A stretch of DNA of 32,977 nt from a virus (Duplodnaviria; Heunggongvirae; Uroviricota; Caudoviricetes): positions 1-32,977 of IMG/VR virus record IMGVR_UViG_2713896908_000011. One strand, 5' to 3'. Under the pieces are notes generated by a model, which worked only from the letters and a program-made list of their open reading frames with translations, was not told the DNA's origin and did not search any database. Both the position numbers and the translations under genes were made by a program. Positions 16,375 to 32,977 of the stretch are shown in pieces. Positions within the stretch are counted from its first letter, which is position 1. The number at the start of each line of letters is the position of its first letter.

Positions 16375-17127
16375 TTATCTTGTCACTTTTCTCAACAGTG
16401 CTTCTGCATATGCTTCTTCCTGCCAGCACTTTGTAACCAGTTTATCAATAACATCAGCATACCCCTTGTACCACTGATAATCCGTCAGGTCCGGTACCAG
16501 TTTCTGGACATGATGCCGCGCCAGTGTGGTTGGTAAACGGCTAAACCGATTTCCATTGCAACGCCCACAAATCTTATAAACCGGCGTGCCATGAAGCCGG
16601 GTTCTTTTTTCATCCAGGACAATACCTTTACCCTTACACCCTCTGCACGCTGTGCTGACTTCTCCCTTACCATGGCAATGCTGACATAGTTCCTTCACCC
16701 ACTCTTCCTTGATAACAGATTCCCCGCTTCTGGAGTGTTTCACCACTTCGCGCAATACATTATGAAATCCAGTACCAGCACAATGCTCACAGCGAGCCTT
16801 ACTTGCCGCAGACCTGGAATAATCAGCAAAGGCAAAATTCACAAGGTAAGGGATGATCTGTAACCGGGTTTCTTCACTCAATTTATTCAATGTCGGGTTA
16901 TCCAGTGCCATCGCGTAATTGAGCAGACCTTCGATCGCAAACTGAGGATCCTGAACACCAACTTTTGCCAGGAATAAGGCAAAACCCAGTGGTGCTTTCG
17001 ACTGCACCATCCCCTGCGCAGCCATCACATCTGTAATTGTTAAACCACCCGAGCCTGTCGCCGGTGCGTCATCACTCAATTTTGGAGATTTTGGGGAGTA
17101 ATATTTTGGTAAGGCTTCAAGGTTCAT
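16375..17127 (-). CDS. Q: late-gene antitermination protein Q (phage 21/82-type family)
   Basis: 250 aa with multiple CxxC pairs (CEHCAGTG, CQHCHGKG, CRGCKGKG, CGRCNG) typical of zinc-binding Q proteins; positioned between the early/replication genes and the lysis genes. Confidence 0.8.
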   Translation of the reverse strand: MNLEALPKYYSPKSPKLSDDAPATGSGGLTITDVMAAQGMVQSKAPLGFALFLAKVGVQDPQFAIEGLLNYAMALDNPTLNKLSEETRLQIIPYLVNFAFADYSRSAASKARCEHCAGTGFHNVLREVVKHSRSGESVIKEEWVKELCQHCHGKGEVSTACRGCKGKGIVLDEKRTRLHGTPVYKICGRCNGNRFSRLPTTLARHHVQKLVPDLTDYQWYKGYADVIDKLVTKCWQEEAYAEALLRKVTR

Positions 17128-19431: not shown

Positions 19432-20085
19432 TCATGCCGCCATCTCCCTGACCAGTTTTTCTGCCTGCTGGCGAACCTGCGCCAGAAAGGCCTCACCACA
19501 TGCCTCAAGTTCATCGCGCCCGATGTAGCTGATTGCCGGTCCCTTCCAGGTCTTGTCGAAAACAGCAATAGCACCAGCAAAGAAAGCGCCTGTCGGCACC
19601 TGCTTCTCGTCCTTCGGGATAAACCAGGCAGGCAGTTCAAAACCAATACGCCCGCGAATAAAAGCAATATGGTCCGCATCTTCCGGCCACCACACTTCAC
19701 TGGTGGCAGCTTTGATCAGGAAAACATAGCGCCCGCCTTTATCACGCATGGCACTGGCATGTTTCATGATGTAACGCATGCCGGTGATGTATTGCCCCTC
19801 ATGCTGACTGGCGCGGCTGTATGGGGGATTACCAAAGGCAGCACCTTTAAGCTCCGCAAGACGTTCTGACCAGTCATGCGCCAGCGCGTTGTCTTCCGCC
19901 GTGTAATACGCGGCACATTTGGCGTTATCACCGTCGGTGAACAGATCCAGAACAAACGGGCCAAACAGGGTGTTAATTCCCCAGAAAATGTTGTCCGGCG
20001 TGCGCCACTGATCGCCCACTTCCTTCAGTTCATGGGCTGGTTTGTTCCGCAGTTCCACCAGCGCCTGGCAATATTTATTACTCAT
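19432..20085 (-). CDS. phage N6-adenine DNA methyltransferase (Dam-like)
   Basis: Motif IV FGNPPYSR (the DPPY/NPPY signature of N6-adenine methyltransferases). Start set at the Met whose ATG overlaps the upstream gene stop (TAATG); the track start at 20118 is the alternative. Confidence 0.8.
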   Translation of the reverse strand: MSNKYCQALVELRNKPAHELKEVGDQWRTPDNIFWGINTLFGPFVLDLFTDGDNAKCAAYYTAEDNALAHDWSERLAELKGAAFGNPPYSRASQHEGQYITGMRYIMKHASAMRDKGGRYVFLIKAATSEVWWPEDADHIAFIRGRIGFELPAWFIPKDEKQVPTGAFFAGAIAVFDKTWKGPAISYIGRDELEACGEAFLAQVRQQAEKLVREMAA

Positions 20086-20579
20086 TAAGCCCCCACGTAA
20101 TTCCCTGACAGATACCACTCTTCACCCGATGCAGCGCGCTTGCTGCTTTTCCGTAAGCACCGCTCACGACGCGCCAGAAAATTGTTTCGTTCTGGCTGGG
20201 AGTGGCTTTCACGGAATGCCGCCATCCACACCGTTGCAGCACGACGGTATAAGCCCCTGGACTCCAGTTCTTCAGCCTGGCGGGTCAGGCACAAAATCAC
20301 TCGGGGATCGTTAGTGCCGACATAGAAATTGCGCACAGGTCTGGTTTCACGAACTGGTTGTGGTTCCGGCTCCTGCGCTCTCTCAGTCAGGCGCGGGAAA
20401 TGTCTGCGTGTATCTCCTTCACAACGGTGAGCCACACGCCCACTCTGACGTAACTTGCTTGCTGACTGCAGAACGCGCTGCCGTGAGTAACCTGCAAAAG
20501 CATCCGCAATGTCTCCGGAAGTACACCCCGGATGGGCTTCAATGAATTTCTGAACGTCATTCAAAAGACTCATAATCAC
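20085..20579 (-). CDS. PerC-family transcriptional regulator homolog
   Basis: C-terminal ...AEELESRGLYRRAATVWMAAF...ERNNFLARRERCL resembles the PerC/Pch signature (LE..GLWRRAA..W). The N-terminal ~60 aa look like an extra winged-helix-type segment. Confidence 0.6.
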   Translation of the reverse strand: MIMSLLNDVQKFIEAHPGCTSGDIADAFAGYSRQRVLQSASKLRQSGRVAHRCEGDTRRHFPRLTERAQEPEPQPVRETRPVRNFYVGTNDPRVILCLTRQAEELESRGLYRRAATVWMAAFRESHSQPERNNFLARRERCLRKSSKRAASGEEWYLSGNYVGA

Positions 20580-21517
20580 CCCCTGAATCCTGCCGGGATC
20601 TGGCTGTAGTCCACGTTGTCGTAACTGGCTTTGAAATACGAGTCTTCGCGTTTTTCGGTGTACGTGCTGACGGACGGCGATAAGCGCAGGGAAAGCTCAT
20701 CCCATTTTTCCCGCAGCTTCGACGGGCTGAGCACGTTACGGCACCAGAACGGATCGCGACTGACGCGGCTGTACATCTCGCAGATTTGTTTGTGAGTACG
20801 ACCATCCTGCACACACATCAGGCGAATTTCGTTTGCCCAGGCTGTCCAGTTCGGTTCTTTGGGACGAACCACCTCGCCGTCACATTCGGCGGCCTGCTCG
20901 TACAGGGCGATGATTTTTTTCCAGAGCCACTGTGCGCAGGTCAAATCATCCTGCGTTCCCCACTGGCGCTTTTTAGGGCTGAATACAACCGCATCAGGAT
21001 GGCGAGTTAAAAACTCCTGTTCAGCCGTCTGCGTGTCCGGTTGCGAAGCGTCCGGACGAGAAGGTTTTTTATCTGACGGATCATGTTTTGATTTTACTGA
21101 CGGATCCCCGCCAGATTCTGACGGGTGAAAACCCGCTTTTTTGCCAGATTTTGACGCATCAAATTTTGACGGGTCAGATTTTGATGCGTCAGATTTTGAC
21201 GGGTCAGAATCTGACAGTTGAGAAAAAGCTGCAGCCTGAAGCTTCGCAACGTTAAGCTGATAAACATTCGACGCATTGCGGTTACCCTGGCGACGCGCCT
21301 TACGCGTTAACCAGCCTTCTGCTTCCAGCCGTGCGATAGCCATTCTGACGGTACTCATCCCCGCGCCAATCTGGCGGGCAATGGTTTCAATTGATGGCCA
21401 GCACACACCTTCGTCATTACTGAAATCAGCCAGGCGGGCCATAATTGCCACGCTGGATAATTTCATGCCTGATGCAGCGCAACCATCCCATACATAGCCG
21501 GTTAATTTAGTACTCAT
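20576..21517 (-). CDS. O: replication initiation protein (lambda O-like replisome organiser)
   Basis: N-terminal HTH (...SIETIARQIGAGMSTVRMAIARLEAEGWL...), a central low-complexity repeat (SDPSKSDASKSDPSKFDASKSGKK) encoded by DNA iterons, and a C-terminal domain; same layout as lambda O with an intragenic ori. Confidence 0.8.
   Translation of the reverse strand: MSTKLTGYVWDGCAASGMKLSSVAIMARLADFSNDEGVCWPSIETIARQIGAGMSTVRMAIARLEAEGWLTRKARRQGNRNASNVYQLNVAKLQAAAFSQLSDSDPSKSDASKSDPSKFDASKSGKKAGFHPSESGGDPSVKSKHDPSDKKPSRPDASQPDTQTAEQEFLTRHPDAVVFSPKKRQWGTQDDLTCAQWLWKKIIALYEQAAECDGEVVRPKEPNWTAWANEIRLMCVQDGRTHKQICEMYSRVSRDPFWCRNVLSPSKLREKWDELSLRLSPSVSTYTEKREDSYFKASYDNVDYSQIPAGFRG
21072..21219. repeat. 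iteron array (candidate origin of replication) inside the O-like gene
   Basis: Tandem ~15-bp direct repeats read directly: cagattttgacgcat (21145), caaattttgacgggt (21160), cagattttgatgcgt (21175), cagattttgacgggt (21190), cagaatctgacagtt (21205), plus degenerate copies at 21072..21126. Confidence 0.75.
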
Positions 21518-21526
21518 GACCGACCT

Positions 21527-21865
21527 CTATTTCCCTGAATTTACGACGAAACTGTTCGAGCGGACTGAAGCATTCATGCTCATAGCCTTCGCGGAGGTAG
21601 ATAACCCGTTGTGTTTCCGGTTCCCAACGAATGACTCTGACGGGTACTCCGTAGTGATCTTTGAACCAGCGGTTAACTTGTCGCAAAGGACTGTCTCCTT
21701 TTGTCGGTTGAAATCACCCACAGCCCACTCTGCAAAGCTGTGGGTTACAATTTCCCTGTCACCTGGTACATTCACTGCATAGCAATACTCCACCTTCGCT
21801 TTTCCACCCGGTACAGGAAGCGCAATCAGTTGCGAGCGACGGTAGTGTGTTGTTAAACTGTTCAT
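21527..21865 (-). CDS. hypothetical protein, translationally coupled to the CII-like gene
   Basis: 112-aa ORF whose ATG overlaps the upstream stop (ATGA); no recognisable motif. The plus-strand ORF 21516..21782 is judged antisense. Confidence 0.45.
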
Positions 21866-22470
21866 GCGTTAGTTTCTCCACAGTCACGACACGCCACGGC
21901 GCCCGGAGCTGCACACTCGCGGGCGTCATTACTTTCTGAAATGCAAAAAATTTTGTAGACCAGTGCAGCATGCTCCTGCAGCTTCGAAATTGAGAGATAC
22001 AGCTCGTCGTTGATTGCTGTCTTCTCATGCGGTTCCACCACACCGTCTTCGATTGCCGAACGAATCTGTTTGGAATAACTGCCAATCTGTTCAATGACTT
22101 CCAGCAGGCGCTGGTTAATATCGGCGTTGTCCACATCCTCGACGTCAGGAAGAGACACAAAGACGCCATTTGCCGACTGCGCCACAGCGTCAGCAATGAA
22201 GTGAGTTCCACCAGCACGTTGCAAAATCATTGCCCATCCCAGCGGGAAAATCTGATCGCCATCGGCACGAAGGCGGTTAAATAATGCGCTCTCTGTTACA
22301 TCCAGCCAGTCAGCTGCTTCAGCGTAACCACCCGGCAACTTTGCGATAGTTTTTCTGACAGCTTTCACGTACCACTCAGGCTGTTTTTCTACTTTCCAGT
22401 GATGCTTACCCACGGTTAGCCTCATCGTTCTGTGGTTTCTGTTAATCGATTTATCCATTAGATTTTTCAT
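21862..22470 (-). CDS. CII-like/YdaT-like early regulatory protein
   Basis: First gene after cro in the rightward operon. Start is uncertain (candidate ATGs at 22470 or 22458; the track start at 22527 is a GTG overlapping cro). Family placement (Phage_CP76-type CII versus YdaT-like) is not resolved. Confidence 0.45.
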
Positions 22471-22651
22471 AAAGCTCAGGTTTAAATGGCAACCGTCCGC
22501 AAGTTCTATATGCAGCTTCTGCTGCACGTCCTTTTGGAATTAACTGGCCCGGACGGTTTCGCCACTGATAAACGGCTTCAGTTGTTATGCCGAAAAAAGC
22601 AGCAACTTTCTCAATACTGCCGAAGTAGCTTTCGATATCGTCAGTTGTCAT
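22451..22651 (-). CDS. cro: Cro-like/YdaS-like HTH repressor
   Basis: 66 aa, divergent from the cI-like gene across a 97-bp intergenic region; ...EKVAAFFGITTEAVYQWRNRPGQLIP... fits the Cro/YdaS-type HTH. Confidence 0.7.
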   Translation of the reverse strand: MTTDDIESYFGSIEKVAAFFGITTEAVYQWRNRPGQLIPKGRAAEAAYRTCGRLPFKPELYEKSNG

Positions 22652-22748
22652 ACGCCCTCCAAACTAAGTTTTATTAGATGCTAATTACAAATCTATCTTT
22701 GGTCAATAAAAACTAAGATTACTTAGCAATTCAAGAAATGGTGCTCCT
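22652..22748. promoter_or_regulatory. divergent promoter/operator region (OR-like) between cro and cI
   Basis: Contains palindrome ATTAG-atg-CTAAT (22673..22685) and inverted repeat CTAAG-atta-CTTAG (22713..22726), plus a further CTAAG at 22664. Confidence 0.55.
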
Positions 22749-23375
22749 ATGGAAACGGTTGGTCAGCGTATAAAAGCTCTGAGAAGAGTTACCAGAACGT
22801 CCCAGAAAGAATTGGGTAAATTTTGTGGAGTAAGCGACGTTGCTGTGGGGTACTGGGAGAAAGACATCAATACCCCTGGTGGGGAGGCACTTTCGAAATT
22901 AGCGAAGTTCTTCAATACGTCAATAGATTACATTCTTTATGGTGCTGAGTTTGAAGGCAAACTCGTCACAAACATGCGCAGAGTTCCTGTAATATCGTGG
23001 GTTCAGGCTGGGCAGTTTACTGAGTGCAGGGCAGCAGAAGTGTTTAGTGAAGTGGACAAGTGGGTAGATACATCATTAAAGATTGGTGATAACTCATTTG
23101 CATTAGAGGTTAAAGGTGACTCCATGACTAACCCTAATGGCCTCCCAACAATACCAGAAGGCGCAACAGTGATTGTAGATCCAGATGCAGAACCTCGTCA
23201 TGGAAAAATAGTCATCGCTCGACTTGATGGAACAAACGAAGCTACAGTAAAAAAATTAGTCATCGATGGCCCTCAAAAGTTTTTAGTGCCATTAAATCCT
23301 CGGTATCCCAACATCCCTATCAATGGTAATTGCCTTATCATTGGTGTAGTCAAAGGAGTTCAATACGAACTCTAA
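22749..23375 (+). CDS. cI: CI-like repressor (N-terminal XRE HTH, C-terminal S24 LexA-like peptidase)
   Basis: N-terminal HTH (QRIKALRRVTRTSQKELGKFCGVSDVAVGYWEKD), candidate Ala-Gly cleavage site (VQAGQF), catalytic Ser in GDSM and Lys in ATVKKL. Confidence 0.9.
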   Translation: METVGQRIKALRRVTRTSQKELGKFCGVSDVAVGYWEKDINTPGGEALSKLAKFFNTSIDYILYGAEFEGKLVTNMRRVPVISWVQAGQFTECRAAEVFSEVDKWVDTSLKIGDNSFALEVKGDSMTNPNGLPTIPEGATVIVDPDAEPRHGKIVIARLDGTNEATVKKLVIDGPQKFLVPLNPRYPNIPINGNCLIIGVVKGVQYEL

Positions 23376-23540
23376 GACCTCTCTTCTCTAACTAAGGCAC
23401 CAAGCTAAGAAAAGTTTGGTGTTTTCTCTTGCCATAACAACTAAGTTAAGTTAGATTTTATATCAAAGATAACAAACAGGCAGGACGCCCACGAAGTAGC
23501 CGCCAGGGGCATATGAAGTCCTGGATGATTCGTTAGTAAC

Positions 23541-23564
23541 AAAAAAAGCGTCGTACAGGACGCT
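23541..23564. terminator. candidate bidirectional terminator between cI and the convergent moron gene
   Basis: Hairpin AGCGTC-GTACAG-GACGCT preceded by A7 on the plus strand (U7 after the hairpin on the minus transcript) and followed by a weaker T-rich tract on the plus strand. Confidence 0.5.
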
Positions 23565-23588
23565 TCGCTCTTTAACAATCTGGATGAC

Positions 23589-24104
23589 TTATCGGTCAGA
23601 TTTAAACTGGGGTTCTGGCAAAACTGGTGGTGTTGAATCTTCAAATCGTAACCAGTGTTCCCAAATATCATGTGTTCGTAATTTCTGTAGACTAATTTGA
23701 CGCGATGCAATTGCGGAATTAGTGGTTACTCCACCAGAAGCATCGCCCTCTACTGACGTTGAGGCTTTTTCTACTAATTCTGACCAAGCTTCACTTTCTG
23801 CGTCAAAAGCTTCTGTTAAGTCCCGCAGACGCTGTGGCTCATTTTTATGGTCTTCCTTCAAACGATTCAAAGCGGCAGTTGAATACTTATTCCTGACCCA
23901 TTCGATCTGAGTTAGCTGAATCCGCAGACAATTATCTATATCAATGGTTGTGTTCTGAGGCATGTCAGAACAAGAAATATAAAAGGTCACAACTCCACCG
24001 TTCAAACTACTGCCCGGTTCGATTAAAACATTAGAGGAATTTGACGTAGTCGGCAATATTAATGCTAACGACAAAACCACATGTTTAACAGAAATCGCAC
24101 CCAT
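23589..24104 (-). CDS. hypothetical exported or membrane-anchored protein (moron between cI and the early-left operon)
   Basis: 171 aa with AGAGGG Shine-Dalgarno. N-terminus MGAISVKHVVLSLALILPTTS resembles a signal peptide or signal anchor. Convergent with cI and followed by a terminator; this is the slot that rexAB/sieB-type exclusion genes occupy in lambdoid phages. Confidence 0.6.
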   Translation of the reverse strand: MGAISVKHVVLSLALILPTTSNSSNVLIEPGSSLNGGVVTFYISCSDMPQNTTIDIDNCLRIQLTQIEWVRNKYSTAALNRLKEDHKNEPQRLRDLTEAFDAESEAWSELVEKASTSVEGDASGGVTTNSAIASRQISLQKLRTHDIWEHWLRFEDSTPPVLPEPQFKSDR

Positions 24105-24430
24105 TTAAATTGCCCTCTAAAGAACAAGGTCATCCAGATTAACCGAAACCTGGTTATTGGGGAATAACCAAATCCACCTCGCCTGATGTGGCTAAAAGCA
24201 GGCACATAACAGCTAAGTATTTTCAACCAGAGAGAATCCTTAGCGTTGTGGTGAATGCGCAGGCTGATGCGCGAAAGACATTGCAGCTATTGCGGAAAAG
24301 AGCTGTTCGGCGGGGCAATTAAATGCCTGTGAGAGTCTGAAATAACCGCAAGCCGGAGATCAGCACCGGTCACCACAACAGCCACTGCTTTGGCGGTACC
24401 AGTTTGTACACTTACTTCCGGCTGGTACCG

Positions 24431-24535
24431 CTCTTTTTACAAAACAGAGAAGAGCATCACCGGACGACGGGCTCATAACCCAATCCATCCGGGCGGCTGC
24501 CACCGCAGGTGTTCTTCTCTGTTTTGTGGAGAAAC
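24431..24535 (+). ncRNA. candidate structured RNA element in the early-left leader (long inverted repeat)
   Basis: Perfect 15-bp inverted repeat ACAAAACAGAGAAGA (24439..24453) / TCTTCTCTGTTTTGT (24513..24527), extendable with G-U pairs, enclosing a GC-rich 59-nt segment; located ~40 nt upstream of the first early-left gene. Confidence 0.35.
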
Positions 24536-24575
24536 TAACCGACCTTGCAGGGTCGATATGATGAGGAGCAGCAAA

Positions 24576-24938
24576 ATGGCTAGCGAACGCAGTACTGATG
24601 TGCAGGCATTTATCGGGGAGCTGGACGGCGGCGTATTTGAAACCAAAATCGGCGCAGTTCTCAGTGAAGTCGCTTCCGGTGTGATGAACACGAAAACCAA
24701 AGGTAAGGTCTCGCTCAACCTGGAAATCGAACCGTTTGATGAGAACCGTGTGAAAATCAAACACAAACTCTCATATGTTCGCCCGACTAACCGCGGGAAA
24801 ATTTCCGAAGAAGACACCACCGAAACGCCGATGTATGTCAATCGCGGTGGTCGCCTGACTATTCTGCAGGAAGACCAGGGACAATTACTGACTCTTGCCG
24901 GTGAACCTGACGGAAAACTCCGCGCAGCAGGTCATTAA
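24576..24938 (+). CDS. YfdP-like hypothetical protein
   Basis: ATG with GAGGAG Shine-Dalgarno 7 nt upstream; 120 aa (MASERSTDVQAFIGELDGG...). Precedes a YfdQ-like gene as in the CPS-53 prophage gene order I recall. The track ORF start at 24390 is rejected. Confidence 0.55.
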   Translation: MASERSTDVQAFIGELDGGVFETKIGAVLSEVASGVMNTKTKGKVSLNLEIEPFDENRVKIKHKLSYVRPTNRGKISEEDTTETPMYVNRGGRLTILQEDQGQLLTLAGEPDGKLRAAGH

Positions 24939-25003
24939 TATCATTCTTAATTAACTGATTATTTATCTCATCACTGAATATCTTTATATAGTGAGGACTT
25001 ATT

Positions 25004-25828
25004 ATGTCTCAGAACTTAGACGCAACCGCAATTAATCAAATCCATGCCCTTATTTCTGCTCAGGGTGTTAATGAAATTATCAGTAAGATTGGTGCCGATG
25101 CTGTGGCATTGCCTGAGAATTTCCGCATTCATGATCTGGAAAAATTTAATTTAAATCGCTTCCGTTTCCGTGGTGCGCTTTCCACTGCCAGCATCGATGA
25201 CTTTACCCGTTATTCTAAAGATCTTGCAGATGAAGGCACCCGCTGCTTTATCGATGCTGATAATATGCGTGCCGTCAGTGTACTTAACCTGGGTACTATT
25301 GATGAACCAGGTCACGCAGATAACACCGCCACTCTCAAACTGAAAAAGACAGCACCGTTCTCTGCCCTGTTGTCTGTTAACGGCGAGCGTAACTCCCAGA
25401 AATCACTGGCAGAATGGATTGAAGACTGGGCCGACTACCTTGTGGGCTTTGATGCTAATGGTGACACCATTCAGGCAACAAAAGCGGCTGCGGCGGTCCG
25501 TAAAATCACGATTGAATCAAACCAGACCGCTGATTTTGAAGATAATGACTTCAGCGGCAAACGCTCCCTGATGGAGTCTGTCGAAGCGAAGACTAAAGAC
25601 ATTATGCCAGTGGCATTTGAATTTAAATGCGTTCCGTTTGAAGGCCTTAAAGAACGTCCGTTTAAATTACGCCTCAGCATTATCACTGGCGATCGTCCTG
25701 TACTGGTTCTGCGCATTATTCAGCTGGAAGCGGTGCAGGAAGAAATGGCTAACGAATTTCGTGATCTGCTTGTTGAGAAATTTAAAGACAGCAAAGTAGA
25801 AACCTTTATTGGTACTTTCACCGCCTGA
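25004..25828 (+). CDS. DUF2303-family protein (YfdQ-like)
   Basis: 274 aa with GAGGA Shine-Dalgarno; size and position match YfdQ of CPS-53 (recalled); no catalytic motif recognised. Confidence 0.6.
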
Positions 25829-25954
25829 TTTCATTACTGCAAATGCCCCTGCGGGGCATTTATGGAAACATAATTTACTCAATAATCGCCGGATGGTGAT
25901 GGCTTCCTTTTACCAGAATTCAGCGCGGTGCAGCGCATATACGTGGAGAACAAA

Positions 25955-26491
25955 ATGTCATTTATTAAAACTTTTTCCGGGAAGCATTTTTATTATGACA
26001 GGATAAATAAAGACGACATCGTTATTAACGATATCGCGGTTTCCCTTTCAAATATCTGCCGCTTTGCCGGTCATCTTTCTCACTTCTACAGCGTAGCCCA
26101 ACATGCGGTGCTTTGCAGCCAGCTGGTGCCGCAGGAATTTGCTTTTGAAGCGTTAATGCATGATGCAACAGAAGCGTATTGCCAGGACATCCCCGCACCA
26201 CTGAAACGCCTTCTTCCTGACTATAAACGGATGGAAGAAAAAATAGACGCCGTAATCCGTGAGAAATACGGGTTACCTCCTGTTATGAGCACGCCAGTGA
26301 AATATGCCGATCTCATTATGCTGGCAACCGAACGCCGCGATCTCGGGCTTGATGATGGCTCTTTCTGGCCTGTACTGGAAGGCATCCCGGCAACAGAGAT
26401 GTTCAAAGTTATTCCACTGTCGCCAGGCCATGCCTATGGGATGTTTATGGAACGTTTTAACGAGTTATCGGAGTTACGCAAATGCGCATGA
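25955..26491 (+). CDS. HD-domain phosphohydrolase (YfdR-like 5'-deoxynucleotidase)
   Basis: Start at internal ATG with GGAGAA Shine-Dalgarno (MSFIKTF...), giving 178 aa. HD motif elements ...VAQHAV... and ...LMHDATEAY...; follows the YfdQ-like gene. Confidence 0.7.
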   Translation: MSFIKTFSGKHFYYDRINKDDIVINDIAVSLSNICRFAGHLSHFYSVAQHAVLCSQLVPQEFAFEALMHDATEAYCQDIPAPLKRLLPDYKRMEEKIDAVIREKYGLPPVMSTPVKYADLIMLATERRDLGLDDGSFWPVLEGIPATEMFKVIPLSPGHAYGMFMERFNELSELRKCA

Positions 26492-26901
26492 ATGTTTTCG
26501 AAATGGAAGGGTTTCTTCGCGGGAGATGTGTACCGCGAGATCTGAAAGTGAACGAAACAAACGCTGAGTACCTGGTGCGTAAATTTGCTGAAGCTGAGGC
26601 CAAGTGCGCGGCGCTGGCGGCTGAAAATGCGGGGCTGAAGGAGGTGATAAATGAAGTTCGTAGCATTATTGCCAATTCGCATGGTGTTTCAGGCTGGCAT
26701 CAGAACGGCGATATAGCCGAATGGGATGAGGTCTTGCCAGAAATTGATTCTGTTGAAACCCCAGCCACCGACGCTTTCCTGGCTGAAGTCCGGGCGCAGG
26801 GGGTTGAGATGATGCGCGAACACCCATCAATCAAACTTTGCTCTTTGACGCACATATGTGACGAGTTAGCCGCTCAGCTTCGCAAAGGAGGCAACCAGTG
26901 A
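26482..26901 (+). CDS. hypothetical protein
   Basis: 139-aa ORF overlapping the upstream stop and the downstream start, in the early-left operon; no motif recognised. Confidence 0.5.
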   Translation: MRMNVFEMEGFLRGRCVPRDLKVNETNAEYLVRKFAEAEAKCAALAAENAGLKEVINEVRSIIANSHGVSGWHQNGDIAEWDEVLPEIDSVETPATDAFLAEVRAQGVEMMREHPSIKLCSLTHICDELAAQLRKGGNQ

Positions 26902-27455
26902 ACAAGATTGACTATCAGGCACTGCGTAACAAGGCAGAGAAAGCAACGTGGGGGGATTGGGACTCATATAAACCACACCGTGGCGTACGTGGTTATGAGG
27001 TCCGACTAAGTAGTCAGGCCATTGCACAACACGTTCTGAAAAACAACGCTGAATTTATTGCTGCCTTTAATCCAAAGGTTGCTTTGGCACTGCTGGATGA
27101 ACGGGAAAGAAATCAGCAATACATCAAATCACGCGACCAGGAGAACGAGGATATTGCGCTAACGGTAGGGAAGCTGCGTGTTGAGCTTGAGGAGACAAAA
27201 TCAAAACTCAACAAGCAGCGTGAATATTACGAAGGTGTTATCTCGGATGGAAGTAAGCACATAGCAGAGTTAGAAAGTGGTTCTCAGGTACAAAAGTTAG
27301 TTGAAGCAATCATTGTTGCGATAGAAAACGAACAGGAACGTCTTTTTGATGAAGATTACCTAATGGATTCGAAAGAATGCATTGACGTAATTCGTGAAGA
27401 AGTAAAGCGATGGAATGATTCCAGCGCCGCTGGCATTCGCATTAAAGGAGAGTGA
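26898..27455 (+). CDS. Ead/Ea22-like family protein
   Basis: GTG start with AGGAGG upstream. N-terminal MNKIDYQALRNKAEKATWGDWD... matches the conserved Ead/Ea22 N-terminal pattern (DYQALR..AEKAT.G.W), followed by a coiled-coil region. Confidence 0.7.
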   Translation: MNKIDYQALRNKAEKATWGDWDSYKPHRGVRGYEVRLSSQAIAQHVLKNNAEFIAAFNPKVALALLDERERNQQYIKSRDQENEDIALTVGKLRVELEETKSKLNKQREYYEGVISDGSKHIAELESGSQVQKLVEAIIVAIENEQERLFDEDYLMDSKECIDVIREEVKRWNDSSAAGIRIKGE

Positions 27456-27460
27456 GTGAT

Positions 27461-27658
27461 ATGGATAAAAATCCCCCTGCTTACTGGAGTCTGTCACTTG
27501 ATACCGAATGTCCAAAATGTGGTCACAATTTCGATCTGCTTTGTGATCCAGATTTCTGGGAGTTTTCTGGAGCTAAACAGGCATGTGAAGAAATAAAAGG
27601 TTACGAAACATGCTGTCCAGAATGTAACCATGAATTTAAAACAGATTTCGTGTATTGA
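27461..27658 (+). CDS. small zinc-ribbon protein
   Basis: MDKNPPAYWSLSLDTECPKCGH...CCPECNH...; two CxxC pairs. ATG at 27461 preferred over the GTG at 27452 because of AAGGAGAG spacing. Confidence 0.5.
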   Translation: MDKNPPAYWSLSLDTECPKCGHNFDLLCDPDFWEFSGAKQACEEIKGYETCCPECNHEFKTDFVY

Positions 27659-27668
27659 GGCATAACAA

Positions 27669-27983
27669 ATGACCACTATTACCAGAGAACAAGCTCTGAA
27701 AATTATTGAGGCAGCCGATGAGGTTATTAGTGCGCTTGCCGGAACTATTTTCAAAAGGAGACTATGCGTGAGCGGAATAAATATGCCGTTACAGGTTGAA
27801 GTCGAGGGGCGTACATGGAAATTATTTTCTGTCGACTTTACGGCGGATGAACGGAAGTACTCATTTTATATCTATGCGATTAACCGTGAACATGCATCGT
27901 ACATAGTGGACGATATTAAACGTACAGCAGAACTCTCACCCGGCAATATTGTGGGAATTGTGAGCTCGCAGGATAAGAAATAA
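27669..27983 (+). CDS. hypothetical protein
   Basis: 104 aa with GAGG Shine-Dalgarno in the early-left operon; no motif recognised. Confidence 0.5.
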   Translation: MTTITREQALKIIEAADEVISALAGTIFKRRLCVSGINMPLQVEVEGRTWKLFSVDFTADERKYSFYIYAINREHASYIVDDIKRTAELSPGNIVGIVSSQDKK

Positions 27984-27986
27984 CAC

Positions 27987-28604
27987 ATGAACGCTATTAC
28001 TAAAGAACGTATTGAATTATTCATTAAAAATCCGTTTGAAAACGGACTTACCCATGGCGAACAAATGGAACTGGCACGGATTGCGCTGGCATCGTTGGAA
28101 GCAGAACCGGTGGCATGGCTGCATTCAGACAATGGATTAGGTATTCCAGCAATAACCAGGAGTAAAAACATTGCTGACAGTTGGTTATCAAAGGGCTGGT
28201 ATGTTCAGCCGCTATATATAGCCAAGCCAGTGCCGGTGGTGCCAGATGCTCTTCCGTCTTTAAATAATGGCATAGTCGGCTTTGATGAAGGCTGGAACGC
28301 CTGCCGCGCCGCCATGCTTCGTGGTGCCAAACCTGTAAGCCAGACTTACAAGTTGAACGAGCTGTCGGGCAACTCTCCGGTAACTCCGGATGGTTGGATA
28401 AGCTGTAGTGAGCGAATGCCGAACGATAAACAGTATGTTTGGTGTTGGGGGAAGTCTTACGGCTGGACTGAGTGCGATACCTTCGAAGGGTATTACGATT
28501 GGTCGAGAAACAAATGGTGGGCAGTTACTGACAATGGGGAAGAACCGGCATCGAAAGTAACCCACTGGATGCCGCTACCGGAACCGCCGCAGGAGGTGAA
28601 GTAA
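27987..28604 (+). CDS. DUF551-domain protein
   Basis: C-terminal ...VTHWMPLPEPPQEVK is the characteristic DUF551 ending, with Trp-rich CxW repeats upstream. Confidence 0.7.
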   Translation: MNAITKERIELFIKNPFENGLTHGEQMELARIALASLEAEPVAWLHSDNGLGIPAITRSKNIADSWLSKGWYVQPLYIAKPVPVVPDALPSLNNGIVGFDEGWNACRAAMLRGAKPVSQTYKLNELSGNSPVTPDGWISCSERMPNDKQYVWCWGKSYGWTECDTFEGYYDWSRNKWWAVTDNGEEPASKVTHWMPLPEPPQEVK

Positions 28605-28798
28605 TGAACAACTTAATGACAACTAAACAAGTCGCCGACTTCTGTGGCGTTTCAGTATCGACCGTTCTTCGCTGGAACAGCGTAAACAGGAGAACTGGCC
28701 AGAAATACAGGCCTGAGTTTCCAGATCCGGATATTAAATCCTGCCCAAATAAATGGGCATCACACAAGATATACAGATTTGCTGGAATTATTGAGTAG
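28604..28798 (+). CDS. xis: AlpA-family HTH protein, putative excisionase
   Basis: 64 aa with GGAGGTG Shine-Dalgarno and a 1-nt overlap with the upstream stop. MTTKQVADFCGVSVSTVLRW...FPDP...W fits the AlpA/Xis-type HTH pattern; last gene of the early-left operon, nearest the integrase. Confidence 0.6.
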   Translation: MNNLMTTKQVADFCGVSVSTVLRWNSVNRRTGQKYRPEFPDPDIKSCPNKWASHKIYRFAGIIE

Positions 28799-29353
28799 TA
28801 GCTATTAGTTGACATCACTATATGGATAAATGGTTATTTAATATTTTCCTGAAAGATACAAGAGAAAATGTCCCGAGCCCCAAAAGGGTAAAGTCATCGG
28901 CTGATACCAAGAAATACAATATGTTAATGGTAAGCGAAGTGTAGGCCTGAAAGCAGGAGTGTAAAGTAGCGACATATGGAAATATTAAGGTTCTCAAGGA
29001 AGAAAAGTAGAATGTGTCAAGTAATGATCGTGCCCCAAGTCAGCAACCCAAGAATCGTGACTGGGCTGATGCTCCTGCCACCACACAAGGTCAGGAGCAG
29101 TGGTATAAATAGGGCAGAATAAGCTAAATTGCTGTGTTCTCATTCGGTAATAATACTATCTGCATTAATGATTTAATATATTCATGAGCATTATTAAGTT
29201 GTGTTTTGTGTTAATTGAAACTCAAAATTAATGAATTTTCTTGGGTTATGTTTTTTTTCAATAACAAACCTCTTATTAATTAATTTGAGTTTTTATTTCA
29301 ATACTGATTTAAGACTCGTTAAAGCTTTAGTATTTTTATCAACAACAAAACCA

Positions 29354-29390
29354 AGCCGTTCTTGAGCATGGCTAAGAACGGTATTTTTAT
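29354..29390 (+). terminator. candidate rho-independent terminator at the end of the early-left operon
   Basis: Hairpin CCGTTCTT-(10-nt loop)-AAGAACGG (29356..29381) followed by TATTTTTAT; the reverse orientation is also followed by a T-rich tract, so it may be bidirectional. Confidence 0.5.
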
Positions 29391-29487
29391 ACTCAAGAAA
29401 TCGTATCCACATGATTTAACTAAGTTTTTCAACCTCACCCACCAACAAAATTTTTGTGCTGGACGACGTGTAGTCTGTATACCAATC

Positions 29488-29517
29488 TTGGTTTAATTGT
29501 ACTATCATTCGTAGAAT
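29488..29517 (+). promoter_or_regulatory. candidate sigma70 promoter for the three-gene cassette
   Basis: TTGGTT (29488..29493) - 18 nt - TAGAAT (29512..29517), about 30 nt upstream of the AGGAG Shine-Dalgarno and ATG at 29547. Confidence 0.35.
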
Positions 29518-29546
29518 GAAAAGAACAGCATATTGATAGGAGACAC

Positions 29547-30656
29547 ATGGAAAACAAGACCAATAAGGAAAAAAGTGTAAGAATTAGGCTGGCTTTTAAA
29601 AGATGGCAGCGAAGTGTTTCCCGTCAAGGGAAAGAGTATTCGCAGTTTCGTCAACAAAAAAAATCTCAAAAGAAAAAAGATAATACCTTTATTCGGTTTC
29701 CATCTGAGTTTTCAATATATTCACCAGATAAGCCTAATTTTTTTGCGCACTCTCTACACTCGATAAATCACGTCAGGAATAAAAAATACAATCCTGATGA
29801 GAGATTATATTTAGATTTTACAAATACAAAAACAATAAAAATGGCAGCATTAGTAATACTTTATGCCAGTGTTGAAACTTCAATTCGTAAAGGTTTATCG
29901 TACAGATTATTATTTTCAACAGATTTTAAAGTCAATCAGCTTTTAAGAGACTCGGGTCTTGTCGCCTTATGTCGGGGCGAAAAATTAAAACCTGTCTTCG
30001 AAAACGTTGAAAACTTGCCCATTATTAGCGGGGTAGGAGGAGAATATAGAGATGAGATTATAGATTTCATCCAGAAAGAAATTTATAAAAACAAGATGAA
30101 ACCTGAAACAGAACATACATATGCAGATGCTGTTCAGGAAGCAATAAATAATGTTGGTTTACACGCCTATCCGCATAAAAATAATGATGAGAAACGATGG
30201 TGGCTTGCATGTCACGTAATTCATGACCAGCTGTATCTTGCTATATATGATGAAGGTGTTGGTATACCTGAAACTGTAATGCAAAAGACATGGTTTATGA
30301 GTACGCTCAAATCAAAATATCCAGATCTAAAGGTTGCGGTTAACGAAGAACTTGAGAGAATAGGTTTAGGTTATAAAGAGCGCTCTAAAGTAAAAGTTGG
30401 TATTGTTTCTGATGCAGTAAAAATAGCAATTTCTATGATTGGAGACGTAACCGGTACAGCCAATGATAAACATGGTCAAGGAAGTAAGAGTATTAAAGCT
30501 CTAGTACTAAATAATGAACATGGAAACCTTTGGATTTACAGTAATTTAGGTATGTTCAAGCTTTCTAATAAGAAAGGTGATAAAATTAATGAGTTAACTC
30601 ATAAAGTACCAGGTACTTTAATTCAGTGGAACATCAAGGTCAGCTATGAAGACTAA
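29547..30656 (+). CDS. GHKL-superfamily ATPase/kinase, RsbW/SpoIIAB-like (anti-sigma-factor-type HATPase_c) with novel N-terminal domain
   Basis: 369 aa with AGGAG Shine-Dalgarno. Bergerat-fold motifs in the C-terminal half: N-box AVQEAINNVGLHAY (compare EA.TNA..HAY of RsbW/SpoIIAB), G1-box IYDEGVGIP, G2-like ERIGLGYKE. The N-terminal ~190 aa are Lys/Arg-rich and not recognised. AT-rich codon usage. Confidence 0.7.
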   Translation: MENKTNKEKSVRIRLAFKRWQRSVSRQGKEYSQFRQQKKSQKKKDNTFIRFPSEFSIYSPDKPNFFAHSLHSINHVRNKKYNPDERLYLDFTNTKTIKMAALVILYASVETSIRKGLSYRLLFSTDFKVNQLLRDSGLVALCRGEKLKPVFENVENLPIISGVGGEYRDEIIDFIQKEIYKNKMKPETEHTYADAVQEAINNVGLHAYPHKNNDEKRWWLACHVIHDQLYLAIYDEGVGIPETVMQKTWFMSTLKSKYPDLKVAVNEELERIGLGYKERSKVKVGIVSDAVKIAISMIGDVTGTANDKHGQGSKSIKALVLNNEHGNLWIYSNLGMFKLSNKKGDKINELTHKVPGTLIQWNIKVSYED

Positions 30657-30978
30657 AAACATCAATGTTATCAAAGACTTCAACAGTAAGCCTTACGGGC
30701 GCTATCCAGACGATGGGGCAGGCTGTGGGGAAAACTTTCGCAAATATCTGGCAGGCTTTCTCAAAGAGTATGATTTAGTTCATGTTGAGTTGACTGGATA
30801 TAACCGTTATGGGCGTTCATTTATTGATGAAGCGTTTGGTGGCTTGATCCGAGTAGAAGGCTACACATTAAGCGAACTTAAGAAAAAACTAACTTATACT
30901 CATAAAGATATTAAGAGTATTGAGACCTTGATTGATGAACGATTGAATAAGGCAGAGAGTGATGCAGGAAGAGGTTAA
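30646..30978 (+). CDS. DUF4325/STAS-like small protein (putative anti-anti-sigma-type partner of the GHKL protein)
   Basis: 110 aa, ATG overlapping the upstream gene by 11 nt. Core VHVELTGYNRYGRSFIDEAFGGLIR matches the DUF4325 STAS-like pattern (LDF.GV...S.SF.DE.FG.L) as I recall it. Confidence 0.6.
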   Translation: MKTKNINVIKDFNSKPYGRYPDDGAGCGENFRKYLAGFLKEYDLVHVELTGYNRYGRSFIDEAFGGLIRVEGYTLSELKKKLTYTHKDIKSIETLIDERLNKAESDAGRG

Positions 30979-31456
30979 TTATACAAGTATTGTGATTGCT
31001 ATAATTGGTTGGCTTGTTGCGTCTTATTTCAACAATAGAGCATTCAAGCGAAATGATATTTCAAGGCAAAAGGATAAAATCTGTCAGCAAATAGAATCTC
31101 TTTTTGATAATGTTTTAGATAAGCTCTCTTCTAGAGATACTAAAGAATTAGAGCTGGATAATTTTTTAGCCTCCAGTGTCTCATTAATTGAAATGCAGCT
31201 GTCTCATTTATCACAAAGGATTGGTAAGAAATTATTATGTGATGAACAGTTGTCATCTATCAGATCAACACCTTTAGACTTGTTAAGCAAAAAGTGTGAT
31301 TATAAAAATGAACTTCATGAGATGAAGTATTCAATATTAGAGGAAATTGAAGGTAATTATACAAAATGGTTTTTTGATAGTTACTCAAAAAGATTCAAAT
31401 CCATCTTTGCATCAAAAAGAAGCACACCTAATACTGATCTGAATAGACTATCTTGA
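30962..31456 (+). CDS. single-pass membrane protein (candidate effector of the cassette)
   Basis: Overlaps the upstream stop by ~17 nt. N-terminal TM helix (SIVIAIIGWLVASYF) followed by a ~140-aa helical soluble domain with no recognisable motif. ATG at 30962 preferred over the GTG at 30959. Confidence 0.6.
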   Translation: MQEEVNYTSIVIAIIGWLVASYFNNRAFKRNDISRQKDKICQQIESLFDNVLDKLSSRDTKELELDNFLASSVSLIEMQLSHLSQRIGKKLLCDEQLSSIRSTPLDLLSKKCDYKNELHEMKYSILEEIEGNYTKWFFDSYSKRFKSIFASKRSTPNTDLNRLS

Positions 31457-31462
31457 TAAATA

Positions 31463-31482
31463 GCGCCTTGCATTCAAGGCGC
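31463..31482. terminator. hairpin between the convergent cassette and integrase (possible terminator)
   Basis: Perfect 8-bp stem GCGCCTTG-CATT-CAAGGCGC, 7 nt after the cassette stop. The following tract is A-rich on the plus strand and weakly T-rich on the minus, so direction is ambiguous. Confidence 0.4.
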
Positions 31483-31753
31483 AAACAAAAACAACATTAG
31501 AAATCAACACATTAATAACACACGCATCTCAGTTAACATTTTTAACTATATTTTTACACATATAATCAAGAAAGAATGTTAAATTATAAGAGATAATTTA
31601 GAGAGTGTTTCATAAATTTAAACAAAATAAGTTACTTATTAAGCATATTTTTTTAAAGTGTATTTTACCCCCATTATCCAACAGATATTTTGAGGTCTAG
31701 TTGTCGCTCAAAACGGACAGTCAGATTTTATTTCGTTCTAGCTATGCAAACGG

Positions 31754-32977
31754 TCAGTTGGGGTCTGAGCTAATACAAGCAACTATCAATTCAACCCTCT
31801 CCCACCATACCTGGTAGGCTTTACGCTGTTCTTCTAGATAATCGCTCTTGTCATAAACCTGCCATCCCCCTGGCAACTTATGACCAAGCATAATTTCTGC
31901 AATATGAGGCGCAGTAAGATCAGAAAAGTTTGTTCGTGCTGTTCGCCTCAAATCATGAAGAGACCAATGAGGGAATTGATACCCCAAACGTCGCCATGCG
32001 AACTGCATTAAATTGTAAGGCAGCGACTGCAATGATGTCCGACCAACTGGCTCCCTGCTTCCTTCCTTAGTAAAAAGCATATCGGAACCGTTGTTCATAG
32101 AGATAACGTATTTTATAAGCTCTTCAACCGGCCCAATAATGGGCCGCTTTAGTGGTTCGCCTGTTATCTCCCCTGTCTTATGTCGTTCTGGCGGTACAGT
32201 CCATACCTTATTAATGAAATCAAAATCGTCCACCCTAGCGGTAATTAGCTCTGAACTACGGCAGCCAAAATGCAACAATAGTTTAATGAAGGCCCGGTAT
32301 TTAGGAACCATTCGAGAACCATCGATCGCAGCATAAAGGATTTTAATTTCATCATGTGTCAGAAACCGTTTCTTCTGACCTTTACGGATATCCATATCTT
32401 TACCTGTGATATCCGACAGCGGGCGAGTTTCAATGAGCTTTCTCTTATACGCCCAGACATGGGCCTGCTTTGCGTTAATTAGCAATCGGTCAGCTATTGC
32501 TGGAGTCTTAGTGCTAAGAGGCTCCAAGACCTCTAACCAATCATGCAATGTAGCTGCATCGTGAGGGATACTCCCGATTTTAGAGAACAGGTGCAGTTCA
32601 AATGAGCGGAGTATCTGCTCAGCACCTTTTTTATTTTTTACACAATATGCTTCATACCAAGCACGGATCACAGACTCTACAGTCATGGCTTCAGTAGCTT
32701 TGCGTTTTTCTGCCTGCTTGACCAATCGTGGATTGCGGTTTGACTCGAGTTCACCACGGAGACGGATAACTTCTTCTCTGGCCTCTTTTAATCCAGTTGC
32801 CGGGTAAGTTCCGATATCAAGACGCTCACCTTTCCCTGCCCATTGATAACGATATTGGAACACTACGCGACCTTTCGGTGATACTCTGACAGACAGACCA
32901 TCACGATCGGATTTAACCAAAACCTTATCACGTTCCTTTCCAACAACTGAACGCAACCACGCATCAGACAGCGCCAT
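31754..32977 (-). CDS. int: tyrosine-type site-specific integrase (P4-like, with N-terminal arm-binding DUF4102-like domain)
   Basis: 407 aa. N-terminal MALSDAWLRSVVGKERDKVLVKSDRDGLSVRVSPKGRVVFQYRYQW... is P4-integrase-like. C-terminal catalytic elements HDLRRTART (HxxR) and a Tyr in ...GGWQVYDKSDYLEE. The ATG sits exactly at the window edge, so the true start may lie beyond. Confidence 0.9.
   Translation of the reverse strand: MALSDAWLRSVVGKERDKVLVKSDRDGLSVRVSPKGRVVFQYRYQWAGKGERLDIGTYPATGLKEAREEVIRLRGELESNRNPRLVKQAEKRKATEAMTVESVIRAWYEAYCVKNKKGAEQILRSFELHLFSKIGSIPHDAATLHDWLEVLEPLSTKTPAIADRLLINAKQAHVWAYKRKLIETRPLSDITGKDMDIRKGQKKRFLTHDEIKILYAAIDGSRMVPKYRAFIKLLLHFGCRSSELITARVDDFDFINKVWTVPPERHKTGEITGEPLKRPIIGPVEELIKYVISMNNGSDMLFTKEGSREPVGRTSLQSLPYNLMQFAWRRLGYQFPHWSLHDLRRTARTNFSDLTAPHIAEIMLGHKLPGGWQVYDKSDYLEEQRKAYQVWWERVELIVACISSDPN

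Follow-up and report, generated by a model that had tools for sequence, protein, structure and literature searches.

The yfdP-yfdQ-yfdR genes and a conserved structured leader RNA in the predicted early-left operon of a lambdoid prophage

Gene Block and Prophage Context

The window, meaning the whole stretch of 32,977 nucleotides that was analysed, is a lambdoid prophage, and its yfdP, yfdQ and yfdR genes form a module of the SfV/mEp460/ST64B/CPS-53 type. The three genes and the leader in front of them are arranged as follows:

24392-24555, plus strand: structured leader, just upstream of yfdP
24392..24439, plus strand: H1, a GC-rich hairpin followed by UCUUUUUA (T-tract at 24432-24439), resembling an intrinsic terminator
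24428..24536, plus strand: H2, a branched RNA with a basal stem of 23 predicted pairs, an inner arm and a variable distal hairpin
24540..24555, plus strand: H3, a small hairpin immediately 5' of GAGGAG, the Shine-Dalgarno sequence of yfdP
24576..24938, plus strand: yfdP, 120 aa
25004..25828, plus strand: yfdQ, 274 aa, DUF2303 family
25955..26491, plus strand: yfdR, 178 aa, predicted HD-domain phosphohydrolase, described as a DnaA binder in published work

A good Shine-Dalgarno sequence precedes each of the three genes. The mechanical ORF of yfdR opens at GTG 25928, and the ATG at 25955 is preferred; because this codon has GGAGAA on its 5' side and agrees with the start of the K-12 gene, the protein is taken to be 178 aa long. 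The other landmarks of the prophage are these:

16375-17127, minus strand: Q-type antiterminator
20576-21517, minus strand: replication/HTH_36 gene
21862-22527, minus strand: CII-like gene
22662-22679 and 22706-22726: operator-like repeats ACTAAG-N-TTAG in the cro-cI intergenic region
22749-23375, plus strand: CI-like repressor (HTH_3 and Peptidase_S24), in the same orientation as yfdPQR
23429-23457, plus strand: predicted pL promoter, TTGCCA-17-TAGATT
23434-23454: operator-like repeat just 3' of the cI stop, resembling the two cro-cI sites and overlapping the predicted pL
23589-24104, minus strand: moron between cI/pL and the leader
26482..26901, plus strand: mosaic ORF of 139 aa, overlapping the yfdR stop by 10 nt
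26898-27455, plus strand: Ea22-like gene
27987-28604, plus strand: DUF551 gene
31754-32977, minus strand: P4-type integrase

The promoter-like site at 23429-23457 and the repeat that overlaps it probably represent pL/OL. Since no other convincing plus-strand gene lies between this predicted promoter and yfdP, the three genes are placed as the first three early-left genes, in agreement with the earlier note on this DNA, and would be the first three ORFs of a repressor-controlled operon. The order repressor, yfdP-yfdQ-yfdR, Ea22-like and DUF551 genes is common to mEp460, phiSTEC1575-Stx2k, phiNP, ST64B and Eeyore, in which the exonuclease, xis and int genes come farther downstream. The early-left operons of SfV, mEp460, cdtI, ST64B, phiNP and LLS (PMC12315714) have the same succession with the leader between repressor and yfdP; the window differs from them in the extra minus-strand moron between cI/pL and the leader and in its P4-type integrase on the opposite strand. 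The mosaic ORF after yfdR matches YfdS over its N-terminal 35-45 aa and is different over the rest. Neither full-length YfdS, whose DUF551 part is missing, nor a homologue of YfdT was found in the window.

The block itself is already known as a common, described early-gene block that is annotated in thousands of genomes. Of 5426 complete E. coli genomes, 3150 contain DNA that is 95-99% identical to 24300-26600, and RefSeq labels the genes there yfdP, yfdQ and yfdR (the last as 5'-deoxynucleotidase). The same holds for 57 phage records, among them those of Stx2-converting phages, mEp460 and 1720a-02. Protein searches place the block in SfV and cdtI too. The trio is described as common in lambdoid early-left operons, with two of the three genes lacking a known function (PMC12315714).

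Comparison With the CPS-53 Copy of K-12

The earlier note had pointed to a resemblance to the yfdP-yfdQ-yfdR block of CPS-53, and the alignment to the K-12 proteins that it proposed bears this out. By BLASTP against K-12 MG1655, YfdP is identical at 119 of 120 residues (99%), YfdQ at 270 of 274 (99%) and YfdR at 174 of 178 (98%). The proteins match phrog_204 (YfdP, E 1.2e-49), phrog_210 (YfdQ) and phrog_318 (YfdR). The three genes are orthologues of the CPS-53 genes, beyond chance or mere resemblance.

The K-12 CPS-53 (KpLE1) element, yfdP-yfdQ-yfdR(-yfdS-yfdT), shares the order and spacing of the genes with the window, along with about 97% nucleotide identity and a 10-nt overlap between yfdR and the next ORF. 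It is collinear with the window only at 19819-21284 and 24557-26617. K-12 has lost the DNA equivalent to window positions 21285-24556, a segment that takes in the 5' portion of the replication gene, the genes cII, cro and cI, the moron, pL and almost the entire leader. Because the immunity region, pL and the leader are gone, the K-12 copy is cut off from its native control, and it is this detached copy that has been used in all experimental work. K-12, in turn, has full YfdS and YfdT, which the window lacks. The window thus presents the module in the native repressor-controlled setting that the K-12 model copy has lost.

YfdR and Its HD Domain

The solved structure closest to YfdR by sequence is that of the HD protein Atu1052 (2gz4, E 2e-13). 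In the alignment with 2gz4 and in an alignment of 24 sequences that includes E. coli YfbR, residues R36, H50, H69-D70, E73, D78 and D119 of YfdR are conserved; H69, D70 and D119 are invariant among the 24 sequences and H50 is nearly so. The four differences from the K-12 protein (K16R, N151K, A156S and D170E) all lie outside the HD motif. YfdR is accordingly predicted to be a metal-dependent phosphohydrolase of the HD-domain type whose active site is intact. The HD domain that the earlier note had recognised is therefore upheld, since the catalytic residues whose absence would have spoken against it (H50, H69-D70 and D119) are present.

The enzyme class named in that note, a 5'-deoxynucleotidase, fares less well. 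YfdR scores below the cut-offs of both models for YfbR, at 24.2 against 25.9 bits for Pfam PF12917 and at 19.9 against 122 for NCBIfam NF003009 (PRK03826), and by this family test it is not a YfbR-type 5'-deoxynucleotidase. It shares with the E. coli YfbR 5'-deoxynucleotidase (PDB 2PAQ family) the H...HD...D metal site and the E/D substrate residues at identical spacing, H69, D70, E73 and D78 of YfdR corresponding to H68, D69, E72 and D77 of YfbR. It differs in being only about 23% identical, in having F37 where YfbR has W19 and, for the K-12 protein, in binding DnaA (PMC4776307). [quoted passage not shown] YfdR thus appears to belong to a distinct HD subfamily and not to be an equivalog of YfbR. 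A relationship to Dmp of phage T5 was considered as well and rejected (hhalign probability 0.2%); T5 Dmp, a deoxynucleoside-5'-monophosphatase, is the classical phage dNMPase.

The YfdP-YfdQ Pair

YfdQ matches Pfam DUF2303 (PF10065) over its full length (residues 7-272) with 309.7 bits against a cut-off of 26.6 (E 1.9e-92). Among homologues of 37-59% identity its invariant residues include R52, R56, D66, E77, H104, Q132, E140-D141-W142, R166, R218, R223 and R237, a pattern that would suit catalysis or the binding of nucleic acid or protein without being diagnostic. The predicted structure of YfdP has a long N-terminal helix, a three-strand beta meander and a conserved, low-confidence C-terminal tail (pLDDT 68.6), and YfdP homologues match PF27127. 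The fold search returned no match for YfdP, and Foldseek against BFVD returned only other DUF2303 proteins for YfdQ. No solved structural relative was found for either protein, which is a new point here, and the fold comparisons gave no likeness to known sponges, nucleases, SSAPs or SSBs. A whole-library profile search with YfdQ found no domain fusions, the best 150 matches being proteins of about 250-300 aa and a few shorter fragments. The statement of the earlier note that DUF2303 has no known function holds biochemically, although genetically yfdQ is required for an initiation-block phenotype (PMC4776307).

The scan for related loci gave only loci of 99-100% identity, and the diversity examined here came from tblastn against phage records, with yfdP homologues detected by HMMs built in this analysis. 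In all eight of the diverse phage lineages examined (Vibrio 75E35.1, Thalassomonas BA3, Pseudomonas LPPA56, Xanthomonas Bolivar, ArgO145, phiNP, mEp460 and phiSTEC1575), the yfdP HMM match is the ORF directly upstream of yfdQ. By tblastn, 184 phage records contain YfdQ and 180 contain YfdP, and the two are spread over the genera in almost the same way; YfdR occurs in 337 records with a quite different distribution that includes phages of Bacillus, Caulobacter and Rhizobium. Four of these eight yfdPQ-carrying lineages (Vibrio, Xanthomonas, Thalassomonas and ArgO145) lack yfdR, so the P-Q pair must have a function that is independent of YfdR. In the distant phages, yfdPQ usually has genes for ssb, a DnaQ-like exonuclease or recombinase/exonuclease functions as neighbours. 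The genes yfdP and yfdQ are an obligately adjacent pair that behaves as one evolutionary unit, with yfdR as a separate, optional partner. The strict pairing, which extends to phages of Vibrio, Xanthomonas, Pseudomonas and Thalassomonas, is new here, and it shows that K-12 genetics, in which yfdP is dispensable, missed the real job of the pair.

Published Function and Proposed Role

Purified K-12 YfdR binds DnaA, and Phe46 in domain I of DnaA is important for the binding (Noguchi and Katayama, PMC4776307). YfdR moderately inhibits the binding of DiaA and of DnaB to DnaA, and a later paper again presents it as a prophage protein that competes with DnaB for domain I of DnaA (PMC12122000). In vivo, multicopy yfdQ and yfdR together with yfdS or yfdT block initiation at oriC, and extracts oversupplied with YfdQRST block initiation in vitro; yfdP is dispensable for the block, and deletion of yfdQRST from K-12 has no effect on initiation (PMC4776307). 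A role in phage growth was suggested by the authors themselves (PMC4776307). The same work drew the analogy with lambda P, likewise an early phage protein that binds DnaA and blocks host initiation; lambda P, however, is a helicase loader that targets domain III of DnaA, whereas YfdR is an HD hydrolase that targets domain I, and the two are not homologous. The YfdR-DnaA function had been missed by the earlier note. In the literature searched, no infection or induction phenotype is recorded for yfdP, yfdQ or yfdR. As binding of DnaA by YfdR is the only function studied and is already published, finding the genes alone adds little.

DnaA binding by YfdR of the window is assumed from its 98% identity to the K-12 protein. 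The most likely role of the block after induction or infection would be host takeover at the level of DNA replication, with hydrolysis of dNMPs secondary, a reading to which we assign a probability of about 0.55; it is held to this value because all functional data come from overexpressed K-12 copies. Early after derepression, YfdR, helped by YfdQ and a small protein encoded downstream, would occupy domain I of DnaA, at the surface used by DnaB and DiaA, and new rounds of initiation at the host oriC would be shut down; the low-affinity 5'-dNMP hydrolase activity of YfdR would be a side activity. The present analysis contributes the identity of the genes, the conservation of the catalytic residues, the operon position and the P-Q linkage; DnaA binding and the block of initiation on overexpression come from published work on the 98-99% identical K-12 proteins. 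That the genes serve this purpose during growth of a live phage, and that YfdP is involved, we infer. Several observations weigh against host takeover. The K-12 phenotype appears on overexpression only, the yfdQRST deletion being silent for initiation, and the inhibition by purified YfdR is only moderate (PMC4776307). The window lacks full YfdS and YfdT, one of which was needed for the effect in K-12, and yfdR is missing from half of the yfdPQ-carrying lineages examined.

The linkage of yfdP and yfdQ leaves room for a role of this pair as a replication or recombination accessory of the phage, for example linked to ssDNA or SSB, with YfdR as a later add-on. Such a role is compatible with host takeover and does not exclude it; we consider it rather unlikely. 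It draws on the neighbours of yfdPQ, which lies beside ssb in both Vibrio phage 75E35.1 and ArgO145 and, in Xanthomonas phage Bolivar, beside a block of recombinase, exonuclease and SSB genes, on the many invariant Arg and acidic residues of YfdQ, and on the sensitivity to MMS and H2O2 that follows loss of yfdQ in K-12 (PMC4776307, citing Rooney 2009 and Wang 2010). The lack of fold likeness to SSAPs, SSBs and nucleases counts against it, and hidden recombinases are improbable because the trio co-occurs with complete Rec modules (PMC12315714).

The earlier note had proposed remodelling of nucleotide pools or the countering of nucleotide-based defences, and neither gained support here. For the former, YfdR would act mainly as a 5'-deoxynucleotidase early on, hydrolysing dNMPs from host DNA in the manner of T5 Dmp, and YfdP and YfdQ would be passengers. 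The HD catalytic residues are all conserved and under selection across the family, RefSeq and PHROG annotate YfdR as a 5'-deoxynucleotidase or dNMP phosphatase, and numerous virulent and jumbo phages that infect Bacillus, Caulobacter and Rhizobium carry a YfdR relative on its own. Still, YfdR falls short of the curated thresholds of the two YfbR models, is not homologous to T5 Dmp at the hhalign probability given above and has no evident host-DNA-degrading nuclease beside it, and we regard this role as improbable. More doubtful again, and in our view very improbable, is an anti-defence function in which the HD hydrolase or YfdP-YfdQ would destroy or sequester a nucleotide second messenger or otherwise counter immunity. 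It would fit the early operon position, the ability of HD domains to hydrolyse diverse nucleotides and the wide spread of the P-Q pair in temperate and apparently virulent phages. PADLOC, though, gave no match for YfdP, YfdQ, YfdR or the neighbouring cargo ORFs, the fold searches gave none to a known sponge or nuclease, the loci examined show no link to defence-rich contexts, and the literature searched offers no support.

The Structured Leader RNA

Together with the YfdP-YfdQ pairing, the leader is worth follow-up, and it is the most interesting thing near the block. The region 24380-24580 folds at -91.2 kcal/mol, compared with -58.6 +/- 4.6 for shuffled sequences (z -7.2). In phiNP, ST64B, Kp4866-6 and Eeyore the leader keeps 84-87% nucleotide identity, while YfdQ of the same phages is only 56-59% identical. 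The H1 hairpin and its T-tract are kept in these four phages with different stem sequences, and the H3 hairpin is kept with a changed sequence (covarying CGACC/GGTCG against GGCGG/CCGCC). The inner arm of H2 reads CCGGAC-GAC-GGG[CUCAUAA]CCC-AAUCCAUCCGG and holds an invariant inner hairpin, GGG-CUCAU(N2)-CCC, which lies inside the scan pattern GACGGGCUCAU(N2)CCCAAUCCA; throughout the leader family neither the CAU triplet nor any of the three G-C pairs varies, partly because the pattern required them.

A scan with GACGGGCTCATNNCCCAATCCA, taking one genome per species, found 32 loci, mostly in Enterobacterales, and leader length across relatives is about 105-135 nt. The leader stands before yfdP-yfdQ(-yfdR) at 21 loci, before yfdR without yfdPQ at six and before none of the three genes at five, and from this split it belongs to the start of the operon and not to yfdP. 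From 28 distinct sequences RNAalifold predicts 37 pairs, and compensatory changes occur in 10 of these. One pair of H2 is divided evenly between GC (14) and CG (14) with zero breaks, H2 cells are paired at 97.8% against 40-56% when the partners are slid by 1-3 columns, and none of 500 shuffles reaches the observed covariation score. The H2 covariance model scores 112 bits and finds a single copy in the window. Rfam gave no match at E <= 1 across window positions 22000-29500. A conserved leader RNA with clear covariation and no Rfam match is new here.

The leader invites comparison with the put RNA of HK022. Both are cis-encoded structured RNAs that lie early in the pL transcript of a lambdoid phage, and the setting is N-less as reported for the related LLS (PMC12315714; PMC9378689). 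The leader differs from put in being about 105-135 nt long and branched, where put is about 70 nt with two stems, in lying after and not before the terminator-like hairpin, and in lacking a second copy in the pR operon, where neither a search nor the covariance model found one. BLAST showed no similarity between the leader and the HK022 immunity/put region. Without put similarity and paired pL/pR copies, the leader was rejected as an HK022-type put RNA. A boxA-like sequence, CGCTCTTTTTACAA at 24429-24442, was likewise rejected as a nut site, being no commoner than chance and not conserved in phiNP.

For phage LLS, which lacks an N homologue and whose early-left operon is closest to those of ST64B and phiNP, use of a put-like RNA has been suggested, and the question of early-left control in N-less LLS was explicitly left open (PMC12315714). 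The leader offers a concrete candidate for the control of early-left transcription or translation in this type of lambdoid phage. Conservation extends to a second non-coding block, which closely follows the predicted pL at 23475-23532; 51 phage records carry it at 84-97% identity, SfV, mEp237, YeP1, ZF40 and SPN3UB among them, and its 58 nt fold no better than shuffled sequences (z -1.05). Either the leader or this block is a candidate for a put-like role. As a tentative suggestion, the leader might represent a new class of cis-acting regulatory RNA that moves as a cassette before the first gene of the operon (yfdP, yfdR or others), and YfdP-YfdQ an unrecognised two-protein replication module directed at host or phage DNA.

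One further likeness is recorded as an observation, with no function claimed for it: the H2 inner arm and the anticodon arm of the E. coli initiator tRNA-fMet (metY) have the 14-mer CGGGCUCAUAACCC (CGGGCTCATAACCC) in common.

A structured leader RNA before yfdP

The yfdP-yfdQ-yfdR block of the window is accompanied by several elements, which are given here with their coordinates and strand.

Elements accompanying the yfdPQR block
23475-23532 (+), 58-nt non-coding block just 3' of the predicted early-left promoter pL
23589-24104 (-), moron of 171 aa, phrog_7681, with a weak LprI-like match and a hydrophobic N-terminus
24392-24555 (+), conserved structured leader RNA directly 5' of yfdP
25841-25861, perfect palindrome AAATGCCCC-TGC-GGGGCATTT within the yfdQ-yfdR spacer
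26482-26901 (+), ORF overlapping the yfdR stop, phrog_614/492 C-terminus
29000-31500 (+), low-GC island (GC 34-36% against about 50% elsewhere) with three ORFs
29547-30656 (+), island ORF of 369 aa, no Pfam match
30646-30978 (+), island ORF, DUF4325, STAS-like
30959-31456 (+), island ORF of 165 aa

The leader RNA, of which the window holds a single copy, is composed of a terminator-like hairpin, then a branched hairpin and then a small hairpin preceding the SD. In an alignment of 28 sequences, the branched hairpin showed strong covariation with 10 compensatory pairs, and a comparison of the leader with Rfam gave no match. The leader is present in about 28 species of Enterobacterales, in which the first gene after it is yfdP, yfdR or others, and its invariant inner arm has 14 nt in common with the anticodon arm of tRNA-fMet.

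The leader core GACGGGCTCATNNCCCAATCCA (20 specified bases) was also found in four genome contigs with unrelated flanks (L100, L110, L123 and L125), which are labeled as Planctomycetaceae, Thermoplasmatales, a Pantoea MAG and "bacterium." In L100, the core is still enclosed by a closing stem formed from the flanks. About one such match is expected by chance, and the four matches may reflect a wider motif or contamination.

Comparison with K-12 CPS-53

In the cryptic prophage CPS-53 of E. coli K-12 (L001, about 9586), the interval corresponding to window 21285-24556 is missing, while both of its flanks are matched. The yfdPQR genes of K-12 have therefore lost cII, cro, cI, pL and the leader, all of which are retained in the window, and of the replication gene, which in the window (20576-21517) encodes 313 aa, K-12 keeps only the C-terminal part as yfdO.

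K-12 YfdS and the ORF that overlaps the yfdR stop have only the first 35-45 residues of the ORF in common; beyond these the ORF has a different C-terminus, a mosaic junction inside a gene. In the window, the DUF551 domain is carried by the ORF at 27987-28604 instead. In K-12 genetics, the gene containing this junction, the yfdS counterpart, is required together with yfdQR.

Other elements in and around the early-left operon

The 58-nt block has 84-97% nucleotide identity across 51 phage records, with hosts in Escherichia, Shigella, Salmonella, Yersinia, Pectobacterium, Klebsiella, Providencia and Aeromonas, and is without annotation in nearly all phage records among the matches listed. Its predicted fold does not exceed that of shuffled sequence in stability (z -1.05). 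The block may serve as a binding site for a protein or for RNAP, or it may be a put-like element.

The moron is inserted between the leader and cI/pL, with the arms of a perfect 12-nt inverted repeat on either side (23577-23588 and 24129-24140). A terminator-like hairpin comes after it, at 23545-23566. The related E. coli locus L002 lacks the moron. Within the 126-nt yfdQ-yfdR spacer, the palindrome may act as a weak terminator, an attenuator or a processing site dividing yfdR from the P-Q unit. The low-GC island lies between the integrase and the end of the early-left operon; it is a possible cassette of cargo or defence genes, but the defence-system search PADLOC returned no match on it.
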